Part shown: positions 29,183-36,550 of the stretch, piece by piece
Layout of the letters: each line of letters begins with the position of its first letter
Numbering within the stretch: the first letter of the stretch is position 1
Assembly: GCA_015064015.1 (NCBI GenBank)
Contig: SVTB01000001.1
Location: 2,762 to 66,761, forward strand
Length of the DNA stretch: 64,000 nucleotides
Direction: 5' to 3'
DNA from: Oscillospiraceae bacterium
Lineage (GTDB): Bacteria > Bacillota > Clostridia > Oscillospirales > CAG-272
The notes under the pieces: model-generated
Database searches by the model: none
What the model saw: the letters and a program-made list of their open reading frames with translations, nothing else
What the model was told of the DNA's origin: nothing
Program-made: the position numbers and the translations under genes

Positions 29183-32100
29183 TTATAGCTCCTCGGTGTC
29201 TTCGGGCGTCTCGTCTTCATTCTCGGAAGCCACTTCGGTGTTCTCAGAGGTATCCTCAGTTTCATCAGACTTTTCGGGCGCCGCTTTATTGGTTGTTGGA
29301 GTTTCTTTTTTCTTACCGTTGATCAGGGAAACCAACGCGGCCGCGATCAGCACAAATGCCAAAGCTCCGCCTGCCACAAGGGCAGAACCCAGCTTGCCTA
29401 TGCCGGGCGTCGCATCGGGAGGCGTGGTCTCTCCGGGCGTATCCGTACCGGTGGTATCCTCTTCGAGGTATTCCAGATTGGCGATACGCTTTTCTGCCTC
29501 AATAAGCTTGGCGTAGCCGTCGCTCACAAGACCTCTCTGCTCATCGGTAGAGATGAGATCATAAGCGGCACGGGCGGCCTGCACCAAAGGCTTATCTGCG
29601 AGAGACACCGTCTCAGGTAAACGGTTCACAGCTTCAATAAAGGCCTTGGTGATATCGTCGGGAGCTGCGGCGCCGTCAATGAAAGTAGAGAAATACTGAC
29701 CCATGATAAAGGTATCGTAATTCTGACCGTTGACGGGACGCACTACGGTAATAGGACTTTCCACGTGGCCGATGTAATCCAGGAAGTTAGCGCCGTAGTA
29801 GACGTTGTAGGGCAGGTCGGTGGCGTTCCACATGAAGTAAGGCAGGATCTCGATACCGTCGTACTCCACCTGGGTCACGCCATCAGCCAACACGTAGGTG
29901 TAAGTACCCTTTCCGGGCAGGTTCTGACCGCTGGCGAAGTATTCGTAATCGAAGGCTTCCTCCAGGGCAGGCGCATGATAGGAGCTAAAGGACACGGTGG
30001 TCAATTTCTCGCAGGCGTAGAATGCCTTGTGACCCACAGCCTTGAGGGTCTCGGGAAGCACGACATAAATCACATCAGCACCGGCGCAGGCCATTTCGCT
30101 GATGCGGGTTGTGCCGTCAGCTACCGTGAAGGTCTTCTGACCTTCGACGGGCGCATAGGTGATCAGCTCCAAACCGTAAGGCACCACGCGGTAGAGAGAA
30201 CCGCTAATGACGCGAACAGTATCACTGATATCAAAGGTGTCGGTCAGAACAGTGTAGTCCTTTCCGTTGAACTGTTCTGTGGTTTCTCCCGTGAAGGTAG
30301 GCACACGGCACATCGCGAAGGGATTATCGCCCAGATTGGCAAGCGCACTTCCAAGCTTCACGGTTACATCGGTGATGGTTTCCTTAAGGAACGCCTGCGT
30401 ACCGACATAGGTCGCGGTAGACAGATCCAACTGCGTCAGGGCAGTAAAGGCAAAGGCATAATCGTCTACGTAGGCAACCTTGGAAAGATCCACATCCGAC
30501 AGCTGGTGGCTGTAGGAGAAGGCACCCTCGCCCACCTTGATGCCCTCGGCAAGCATAGCCTTGGTGAGATTCAGGTTGCTGTAGAAGGCGTATTTGCCAA
30601 TCTCGATGCAAGCAGACAGGCTGATCTCGGACAGATTGGTTTCGGCAAAAGCGTTGTCCCCCACAGAAGTCACGGATGACAAATCCATATCTGCCAGAGC
30701 CGCGCAGTTCATAAAGGCGCGGGCGGGGATAGCGGTCAGCGCCTGTCCGATCTTGACGGAGGTCAACTCACGGCAGAACGCAAAGGCGGCATCACCCAAC
30801 TCTGTGACCCCGGAAAGATCCAATGACGTAAAGATGGGCGTATAATAGCGATACACATAGTAGCCCTCTGCATTCAGGGCGGGATTTTGCATACTTGAAT
30901 CGGTGTAAGCATAGAGCACGTCACCCGAGAAAGCCTCGGAACCGATAGACACGACCTGGGAAAGGTCGATCTGCTTGAGAGACGCGGTATTGTAGAAGGC
31001 TCTGTCGCCGATCTTTACACCTTGACCGAGGGTTACCGTCTCCAGCTTGGCGGCATTGACAAAGGCTTCTCTGCCCAAGGTGACGTTGTCGCCGATCGTC
31101 AGGCTTGTGAGGGGGGAGGTATATACAAAGAAGTAGATTCCCTTGCCGTTTTCGTCCTCCTCACGGATCGTACCAAAGTTACTGTCCTGACGGAGGGCAA
31201 AAGCACGGTTACCGATGATGGCGTTCTTTCCGATGGTCACAGAGGCAAGGGATTTGCACTCATAGAACGCGCGGTCACCCACAATCATATCATCGGGAAT
31301 GGTTACGGAAGTCAGATTTGTGCCCATAAAGGCGGCCTCGCCAATGAGGCCCAGCGCACCAAAGGAAGGTGCCTCGGTCAGCGCGGTATTGGCAAAGGCA
31401 TACGCGCCGATCTCGGTCAACGTACCCAACGTCACGGTCTTCAGGTTAGCACAGCCCGCGAAAGCGTACTCACCCACTTTCGTTACACCGGGAAGAACGA
31501 CGGAGGTCAGGTTTCTGTTACCGGAGAAAGCACCGGCGGCTACGACGGTCACCGTCGTGTCGGCCTTGAACTCACCCTTGACAGCGGAAGACACCAGCAA
31601 GAGTTGCTTGCCGTCGGCACTCAGGAGAGCCTGACCGTTGTTGGCCACCTTGAAGGCGGCATTGGCGGAATCAATCACAAAGCTTTCTACCGGTGCACCT
31701 GCAAAGGCGTACTCACCGATCACAGCCACATCCTTGCCAAGGTTGACAGAAGTCAGAGCGCCACAGCCGTTGAAAGCATAGGCGGGAACAACGGCGGTAT
31801 TAACGGTAATGGTTTCCAGAGCCTTACAGCCTGAGAATACATACTTACCCAGCTTGATGAAATCAGCTTTGATCGTCACGGTCTTGAGGGATTCGCAACC
31901 CTCAAACACACCGATACCCAAAGACTGGGTCTTTTCGGAAAGGACAATGCCCGCGAGCTTCTTGTTGCCGGCGAAAGCATAGTCAGACACGGCGGTCGCG
32001 CTATCCAAAGAAATGGTTCCCTTCAAGGCACAGCCGTTAAAGGCGTTCTGGTTGATAAACTTGACATTTTCAATACCCTTGACTTCCACCAACGCGCTAC

Positions 32101-36550: not shown

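Follow-up and report, generated by a model that had tools for sequence, protein, structure and literature searches.

What would an uncultured gut bacterium do with a single 2455-aa protein that joins a subtilase to a long array of leucine-rich repeats (LRRs)? The question is raised by a gene on the minus strand at positions 29183 to 36550 of the window, the whole 64,000-nucleotide stretch of Oscillospiraceae DNA analysed here. The gene heads a conserved operon, whose further genes code for an accessory lipoprotein and an Opp-type importer, and we propose, with a probability of about 0.6, that its product is a cell-envelope protease (CEP) of the lactocepin/SpyCEP/C5a-peptidase type that would feed oligopeptides to its own Opp importer, a nutritional role.

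This reading presupposes that the protein is real. The open reading frame (ORF) is single and uninterrupted, with an ATG start and 2455 codons, and we regard it as virtually certain that it is one real gene with the architecture given below. An earlier, sequence-only reading had described a lactocepin/C5a-peptidase-like S8 protease fused to a BspA-type LRR array, with a transmembrane (TM) helix in place of an LPXTG anchor, and this domain reading proved right. It had also called the protein chimeric; the fusion of protease and LRR array stands, while the implied one-off event does not, as the architecture is old and fixed, being found in at least 571 species-level genomes and also in relatives that are 38-40% identical. 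The same reading had asked for a check on whether a frameshift or an assembly join had merged neighbouring protease and LRR genes. We reject this explanation, whose chance we consider negligible, on evidence from clusters, loci and conservation across the junction. A protein search returned, besides the protein's own cluster at 100% identity, more than 120 independent full-length clusters (from NCBI, ENA, JGI and Logan assemblies) that share the identical architecture at 94-100% query coverage and 58-85% identity. The fusion is likewise seen in 80 genome loci from separate studies, kept from among the at least 571 genomes with relatives; these align through the junction region (aa 700-1400) at 59-91% identity. 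Conservation shows no break over aa 1350-1450. ORFs on the opposite strand within the gene (e.g., 32453-33874 and 35624-36595, plus strand) were taken as by-products of a long ORF in DNA of 53% GC. The gene and its parts are as follows.

29183 to 36550, minus strand: whole gene, cell-envelope-type subtilase with LRR_5 array and C-terminal TM anchor, 2455 aa (intact ORF; 120 full-length homologue clusters with the same Pfam architecture)
36622 to 36650, minus strand: promoter-like TTGAAA-17-TGgTAAAAT with extended -10 (consensus scan)
36446 to 36550, minus strand: N-terminal basic stretch and hydrophobic segment of ~25 aa (aa 1-35), Sec signal peptide or signal anchor (hydropathy peak aa 7-35; homologues alike)
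35906 to 36445, minus strand: presumed propeptide (aa ~36-215), resembling I9 only by eye (assigned from its place before S8)
34463 to 35890, minus strand: Peptidase_S8 catalytic domain (aa 221-696; Pfam PF00082, E 2e-46)
35861 to 35863, 35633 to 35635, 35345 to 35347 and 34649 to 34651, minus strand: catalytic residues D230, H306, N402 and S634, respectively
34838 to 35047, minus strand: PA domain inserted within S8 (Pfam core aa 502-571; PF02225, E 8e-16)
33977 to 34348, minus strand: fn3_5 (aa 735-858), equivalent to the CEP 'A' domain (PF06280, E 5e-12)
32411 to 33976, minus strand: further all-beta Ig/Fn-like modules (aa 859-1380), one weak Big_2 (AlphaFold2 and Foldseek)
29921 to 32398, minus strand: BspA-type LRR_5 solenoid (aa ~1385-2210), ~25-29 canonical units plus insertions (Pfam, AlphaFold2, Foldseek)
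29453 to 29920, minus strand: C-terminal module (aa 2211-2366), a loop of low confidence and then a small alpha/beta part that ends in a helical hairpin (AlphaFold2; motif kept in homologues)
29393 to 29452, minus strand: acidic Pro/Thr-rich linker (aa 2367-2386; low-complexity sequence, variable in homologues)
29321 to 29392, minus strand: TM helix (aa 2387-2410, LGSALVAGGALAFVLIAAALVSLI; hydropathy peak 2.57)
29186 to 29320, minus strand: acidic cytoplasmic tail of 45 aa, 16 D+E versus 5 K+R (low-complexity, poorly conserved in homologues)

The promoter-like site is the top-scoring one of its region, with 10 of 12 matches plus the TG, and lies ~72 nt 5' of the protease ATG; it is putative, being a consensus match only.

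The N-terminal half carries the catalytic hallmarks of a subtilase. Asp, His and Ser follow one another in the D-H-S order of MEROPS family S8A, together with the oxyanion-hole Asn, and each of the four residues (D230 in VAVLDTGLDY, H306 in DHGTHVA, N402 in AASNS and S634 in SGTSMACP) is invariant in 120 of 120 aligned homologues, in keeping with the intact catalytic tetrad noticed earlier from the letters alone. In this alignment the protease part is the best-conserved region of the protein (0.73-0.86 identity), and the presumed propeptide is moderately conserved (0.4-0.5). The PA-like insert that had been noticed is a Pfam PA domain nested in S8, and fn3_5, a domain that always occurs together with S8 (PMC7783315), follows directly after the catalytic domain and precedes more Fn/Ig-like modules; this is the domain order by which proteases of the CEP type are recognised. 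An AlphaFold2 model of aa 700-1400 (pLDDT 72.5) is all-beta, with beta-sandwich modules at about aa 1169-1237 and 1283-1372. Both of the stretches that had been called Big_2-like are therefore Ig-like modules in the model, whereas by sequence only one is Big_2, and weakly so (aa 1315-1347, E 0.0016, 18.8 bits, under the Pfam cut-off of 22.8); a precomputed PF02368 match is present in many homologues. Foldseek places this model closest to the Fn3 regions of ScpB, ScpA and SpyCEP (E ~1e-14), and aa 215-864 match SpyCEP/ScpC (7edd, 3e-65) and the C5a peptidase ScpA (1xf1, 7e-52) among the sequences of the PDB. Based on these sequence and fold matches, we conclude that the N-terminal ~1380 aa form a bona fide CEP-type module. 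The nearest CEP-like model of NCBIfam, that for the LPXTG-anchored serine peptidases SGO_0316/SGO_0317, reaches 259 bits against a cut-off of 1400, over aa 74-868 only.

What such a protease might be for is suggested by the genes that follow it on the same strand, in the order protease, lipoprotein, SBP_bac_5 binding protein, OppB, OppC, OppD, OppF and small membrane protein.

27729 to 29075, minus strand: accessory surface lipoprotein, 448 aa from M27, lipobox MIAAC (translation; fused to the protease in a subclade)
25105 to 27729, minus strand: OppA-like substrate-binding lipoprotein, 874-aa ORF, SBP_bac_5 (Pfam E 6e-27; syntenic in ~70 loci)
20793 to 25078, minus strand: OppB (24086-25078), OppC (22999-24093), OppD (21772-22995) and OppF (20793-21779) (Pfam BPD_transp_1, OppC_N, ABC_tran, oligo_HPY)
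20484 to 20786, minus strand: small basic protein of 100 aa, TM helix at its C-terminus, closing the cluster (translation)

The gap between the protease and the lipoprotein measures 30 nt from ORF to ORF, or 108 nt when counted from the likely M27 start (nt 29075); the start of the OppA-like gene overlaps the lipoprotein stop, and the genes from there through OppF overlap or lie within ~26 nt of each other. Terminator-like sites are not enriched (17 found versus 14.7 expected from shuffled sequence), and none lies in the gap between protease and lipoprotein. Wherever a related locus has sufficient downstream sequence (about 70 of 84), it keeps the order protease-lipoprotein-SBP-OppB-OppC-OppD/F, at protease identities as low as 52%, and so does one 45%-identical relative.

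The transporter has the complete composition of an Opp/Dpp importer: the SBP_bac_5 protein is joined by two permeases of the BPD_transp_1 family, one of which carries OppC_N, and by two ABC ATPases that end in oligo_HPY. The best NCBIfam models, whose equivalog cut-offs are mostly missed, are Opp4A for the binding protein, Opp4B/Opp4C for the permeases, and OppD and DppF/OppF for the ATPases, and the best PDB match of the binding protein is Bacillus subtilis AppA (1xoc). At 874 aa the OppA-like ORF is large next to the ~540 aa of a typical OppA, and this size is kept in relatives (857-878 aa). The Opp4A model covers only aa 54-189 of it, and the best SBP_bac_5 stretch spans aa 489-768; some 200-300 aa between the matched stretches have no family match and look helical by eye. 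The small protein after OppF has a very basic N-terminus and no usable Pfam match at E ≤ 5; a gene for 89-100 aa occupies the same position in two related loci (L001 and L004). At the head of a peptide-import operon that recurs in hundreds of uncultured Clostridia from herbivore guts, the protease most likely supplies the cell with peptides. The operon context, which falls outside the coordinates covered by the sequence-only reading, is the most telling evidence and points to nutrition rather than host adhesion.

It should be noted that the same genes could serve a dedicated processing protease, which would trim a specific secreted precursor (a pheromone, a bacteriocin or a surface protein) so that Opp could re-import the peptide as a signal. 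Opp systems of Firmicutes do import signalling peptides besides nutrients, a conserved small basic protein with a TM helix closes the operon, and a thiol-disulfide oxidoreductase gene is a conserved neighbour. We nevertheless consider this quite improbable: the conserved block contains no RNPP-type regulator, precursor peptide or bacteriocin genes, an enzyme of 2455 aa with a binding protein of 874 aa would be costly for signalling, and the multi-domain build with PA and fn3_5 matches surface proteases of the CEP type (lactocepin, SpyCEP and C5a peptidase).

The manner in which the protein is held at the cell surface bears on the role of its LRR array. The predicted TM helix falls exactly at nt 29321-29392, where it had been placed before, and is followed directly by KKK, consistent with the positive-inside rule, an arrangement that is kept in homologues; the 45-aa tail is as acidic as had been described, and the helical module that had been noted after the LRR array corresponds to predicted helices at aa ~2299-2366. 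The module carries a motif conserved among homologues ('AARAAYDxISxxEQRxLV...AEKRIxxLEYL'), and aa 2201-2386 yield nothing usable in Pfam at E ≤ 5. A motif search of the whole protein found no LPXTG, as previously claimed, and Pfam gave no SLH, CWB or LysM matches in the protease, which thus lacks the wall or S-layer anchor characteristic of CEPs. An LPATG motif does occur in 32 of 120 homologues (one of them with LPMTG; e.g., P0011 and P0083) at aa ~2170-2230, near aa 2190, within the low-confidence loop, and the equivalent in the window protein is 'NLPGKGT' (~aa 2215-2221). We rejected this motif as a sorting signal, since ~190 aa, including a folded module, separate it from the TM helix. 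The frequent recurrence of LPATG in homologues, despite its non-canonical distance from the hydrophobic segment, is recorded here as an observation.

With the anchor at the C-terminus, the LRR array is placed between membrane and protease head. That this region scores as LRR_5, the second point marked for checking, was borne out: Pfam finds seven multi-repeat stretches (E 4e-106; 350 bits, where the cut-off is 27.7). The canonical units are 21-23 aa long with the hallmark 'IGxxAFxxC', and between aa ~1385 and 2210 there are ~25-29 of them with several insertions, such that the extent given by the sequence-only reading was correct and its number of ~35 units a slight over-count. AlphaFold2 modelling of aa 1380-2386 from an alignment with 25 homologues (mean pLDDT 85.9) shows the array as one continuous solenoid, with pLDDT mostly above 90, whose best Foldseek matches in the PDB are the BspA-type LRR proteins 4fs7, PcpA (4cp6), 4h09 and 4gt6 of Faecalibacterium prausnitzii. 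The significant profile matches and the predicted LRR solenoid fold together place the array among the BspA-type LRRs. The array varies little in length (823-839 aa among 119 homologues, ~826 aa in the window protein), and no tandem repeats were found at the DNA level in the LRR region, which indicates that no recent repeat expansion has taken place. Scaffold positions (F, A, G, I/V, L, C) are conserved, with an entropy of 0.04-0.9 bits. Presumed surface positions vary more, and unevenly so: their entropy is 0.9-1.7 bits over the first ~8 units (aa ~1440-1620) but 2.0-2.7 bits over units 9-24.

BspA-type LRRs invite a different interpretation, close to the substrate- or host-binding arm that the sequence-only reading had proposed, in which the LRR_5 arm would bind host mucosa, plant or fungal particles or other microbes while the protease degrades a specific factor of a host or competitor, as do C5a peptidase and SpyCEP. 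The best NCBIfam match of the LRR part is indeed the adhesin HupY/LrrG, its structural matches are PcpA and BspA-type surface proteins, the protease part is nearest to SpyCEP and ScpA/B, and the high variability between species of the surface of units 9-24 could reflect adaptation to ligands. Yet the protease is linked in an operon to an Opp importer in ~70 loci, and the array itself is unlike typical variable adhesins, having a fixed length, virtually no variation in copy number and no DNA repeats. Moreover, it sits on the membrane-proximal side of the protease, where it would be partly buried by the cell wall, and the gene is carried by commensal anaerobes that live in the hindgut of many different hosts. 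We therefore consider an adhesin-protease unlikely. A rigid, length-constrained stalk with a conserved docking or substrate patch proximal to the protease appears to fit the array better than an 800-aa ligand-binding or generic adhesin arm, although the variable part may have a ligand-binding role.

The accessory lipoprotein is encoded downstream of the protease in all loci with enough flank. It is 100% identical to a 448-aa 'hypothetical protein' at NCBI and has no Pfam match (even at E ≤ 5) and no NCBIfam match. GWY-type repeats occupy its N-terminal half and a GLUG/M26_N-like sequence ('GNGHxISN...GGLFG') its C-terminal half; a few homologues have a match to PF05342 (Peptidase_M26_N). In 12 of the 120 homologue clusters of the protease (~10%), the protein is longer (2924-2966 aa) by a C-terminal extension of ~500 aa, in which the first TM helix is followed by a basic linker, by a second TM helix and finally by a domain like the accessory lipoprotein. 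The extension of one such homologue (P0019) is 48% identical to the lipoprotein of the window over 446 aa (E 8e-137). At the DNA level the fusion is a single ORF in two independent metagenome-assembled genomes (MAGs), at 7946-16810 of L007 and 7874-16801 of L013 (2954 or 2975 aa), and in both the OppA-like gene lies directly 3'. As the second TM helix replaces the lipoprotein signal, both the protease and the accessory part would stay on the outer side of the membrane. A fusion of this 'Rosetta-stone' kind is an argument for joint action of the two proteins, and it nominates the lipoprotein as a specific candidate partner of the protease. A bolder idea is that the protease, accessory lipoprotein, giant OppA-like lipoprotein and OppBCDF constitute one physical, membrane-anchored 'proteolysis-uptake machine', in which the conserved proximal LRR units would provide a docking platform that keeps the binding protein or the accessory protein beside the active site, for direct hand-over of peptides to the transporter. 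We offer this as a speculation with perhaps a small chance of being correct; if it were true, the machine would be the monoderm counterpart of the Sus-like utilisomes of Bacteroidota, and the docking platform a new, non-adhesin role for BspA-type LRR arrays.

Based on our results, we favour the nutritional reading, which would work as follows. The protease, whose N-terminal hydrophobic signal is observed, would be exported by Sec and, by analogy with other subtilases, would remove its propeptide autocatalytically; the mature enzyme would then be tethered by the C-terminal TM helix alone. Outward from the membrane, the order of parts is the acidic Pro/Thr-rich linker, the helical module, the ~826-aa LRR_5 solenoid, the Ig/Fn-like modules and the S8-PA head. 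The LRR array would act mainly as a rigid stalk of fixed length that holds the protease beyond the wall, and its conserved protease-proximal units (aa ~1440-1620) may form a docking surface for substrate or partner proteins. Extracellular proteins would be cut to oligopeptides, captured by the giant OppA-like protein and imported by OppBCDF. The system would thus be a self-contained protein-to-peptide feeding module in uncultured Oscillospiraceae of the herbivore hindgut.

Several points weigh against this proposal. The closest solved relatives, SpyCEP and ScpA/B, are virulence proteases of narrow specificity rather than nutritional enzymes, and the characterised LRR_5 proteins are adhesins; the stalk role is argued from two properties of the LRRs, their position and their conservation. 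SBP_bac_5/Opp-family transporters can also carry nickel, opines or sugars, and here the peptide-specific NCBIfam matches all fall below their curated cut-offs, with weaker matches to NikA and CntA. More distant S8-LRR_5 relatives (38-41% identity) lack neighbouring opp genes, so linkage to opp appears specific to this subfamily. The presumed propeptide (aa 41-215) has no Pfam match even at E ≤ 5. Finally, the source organism is uncultured, and the proposal is built on sequence.

The family extends well beyond the window. Among the GTDB species representatives, at least 571 genomes encode a protein related to aa 700-1400. The 80 loci that were kept all come from MAGs assigned to Clostridia, Eubacteriales, Oscillospiraceae or Faecousia, and their hosts are mostly roe deer, goat, sheep, yak, cattle and buffalo (hindgut). 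An exhaustive HMMER search with aa 200-1380 returned 2515 representatives at E ≤ 1e-30; the top 150 of these are 38-74% identical (mostly 38-64%), and most have 2000-3150 aa, the shorter ones looking like fragments or short variants. Among the distant representatives scanned, S8, PA and LRR_5 occur together in four of four and fn3_5 in three of four, with 3 to 15 LRR_5 stretches. Because relatives across such a wide range of identity share the architecture, the S8-LRR_5 combination must be old and widespread in this part of the Clostridia. One distant relative of 3155 aa (P0258, within the region 2674-22256 of L085) carries 15 LRR_5 stretches, has no opp neighbours, and is flanked by two Flg_new+LRR_5 surface proteins and fragments of IS91-type transposases; this context indicates that the S8-LRR_5 architecture is deployed in other settings too.

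These sequences are already public, uncharacterised and not named as proteases. NCBI calls the homologues 'leucine-rich repeat protein' or 'hypothetical protein', and surveys of proteases by product name would therefore miss them; in the literature we found no description of an S8+LRR_5 protein, a CEP with LRRs or such a protease in Oscillospiraceae. Protein breakdown in the rumen and hindgut controls the nitrogen efficiency of livestock, and the enzymes of the dominant uncultured Clostridia are largely uncharacterised. Our analysis predicts that one very large protease of the cell surface, hard-wired to a peptide importer, is common to hundreds of Oscillospiraceae species.

On the other side of the protease, two genes are transcribed divergently from it, and most related loci also carry this pair upstream.

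36861 to 39677, plus strand: protein of 938 aa, ResA-like extracytoplasmic thiol-disulfide oxidoreductase domain at aa ~152-289, divergent from the protease
39678 to 41120, plus strand: Ig/CarboxypepD_reg-like protein, 480 aa, divergent from the protease

Each LRR unit of the protease carries a conserved Cys ('AFxxC'), and the ResA-like gene lies nearby. Downstream of the operon lies a gene (18171-20423, minus strand) whose 750-aa product combines a NAGPA (phosphodiester glycosidase) domain with a PT-rich repeat; tblastn did not detect it in related loci, and it is therefore placed outside the conserved block. Two adjoining ORFs of 956 and 426 aa (3400-6270 and 6272-7552, both on the minus strand), beside GH4 and rhamnosidase-like genes, have no Pfam match at E ≤ 1e-4. 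IF-2 (45793-48858, plus strand) has a low-complexity, basic and Pro-rich N-terminal extension of ~440 aa with weak HC2 and Extensin-like matches, which accounts for the local peaks in GC content (0.596) and AT skew (0.204) at 46-48 kb. No tRNA genes were found in the window.

How does the system compare with those already described? In its build it resembles lactocepin PrtP and the other CEPs of lactic acid bacteria, with which it shares an S8 domain with a PA insert, fn3_5 and more Fn/Ig-like modules, followed by a helical module and, ahead of the anchor, a low-complexity spacer. The PrtP of Lactococcus lactis has been modelled as a protease head on a stalk of Fn-like and helical domains with a total height of 20-40 nm (PMC7783315). 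A protease head on a long stalk is what we would also expect of the window protein, and the proposed functional logic, in which the protease yields oligopeptides that Opp takes up, would be the same. The two differ in that the window protein has a ~826-aa LRR_5 solenoid between its Ig-like and helical modules, and in that its anchor is a TM helix with an acidic cytoplasmic tail rather than LPXTG or wall binding. No rotamase/PrsA domain of a PrtM/PrsA-like maturase is found in the neighbours of the gene in the window, where a lipoprotein without a Pfam match lies instead. In addition, the protease of the window is linked in an operon to its own opp genes, an arrangement that differs from the classical lactococcal one.

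The streptococcal enzymes SpyCEP/ScpC and ScpA/ScpB share the S8+PA+Fn3 build and are both the best solved sequence relatives and the best fold matches, although fold-level identity to the Fn region of the window protein is only 11-17%. Unlike the window protein, they are LPXTG-anchored virulence factors with narrow host substrates and lack an LRR array. The BspA-type LRR_5 proteins (BspA of Tannerella forsythia, PcpA of Streptococcus pneumoniae, HupY/LrrG of group B Streptococcus, and 4fs7, 4h09 and 4gt6) have in common with the array the 'IGxxAFxxC' unit, the LRR_5 profile and the fold. They are, however, stand-alone adhesins or antigens with arrays of ~200-400 aa, while the array in the window has ~826 aa, is fixed in length, lies between a protease and its membrane anchor and has a surface conserved only near the protease. 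To our knowledge, no described CEP has an LRR_5 solenoid. The gene is an elaboration of the CEP theme rather than a surprise, and it offers a natural example of a CEP anchored by a TM helix in which an LRR_5 array would serve as a structural element of fixed length within an enzyme.

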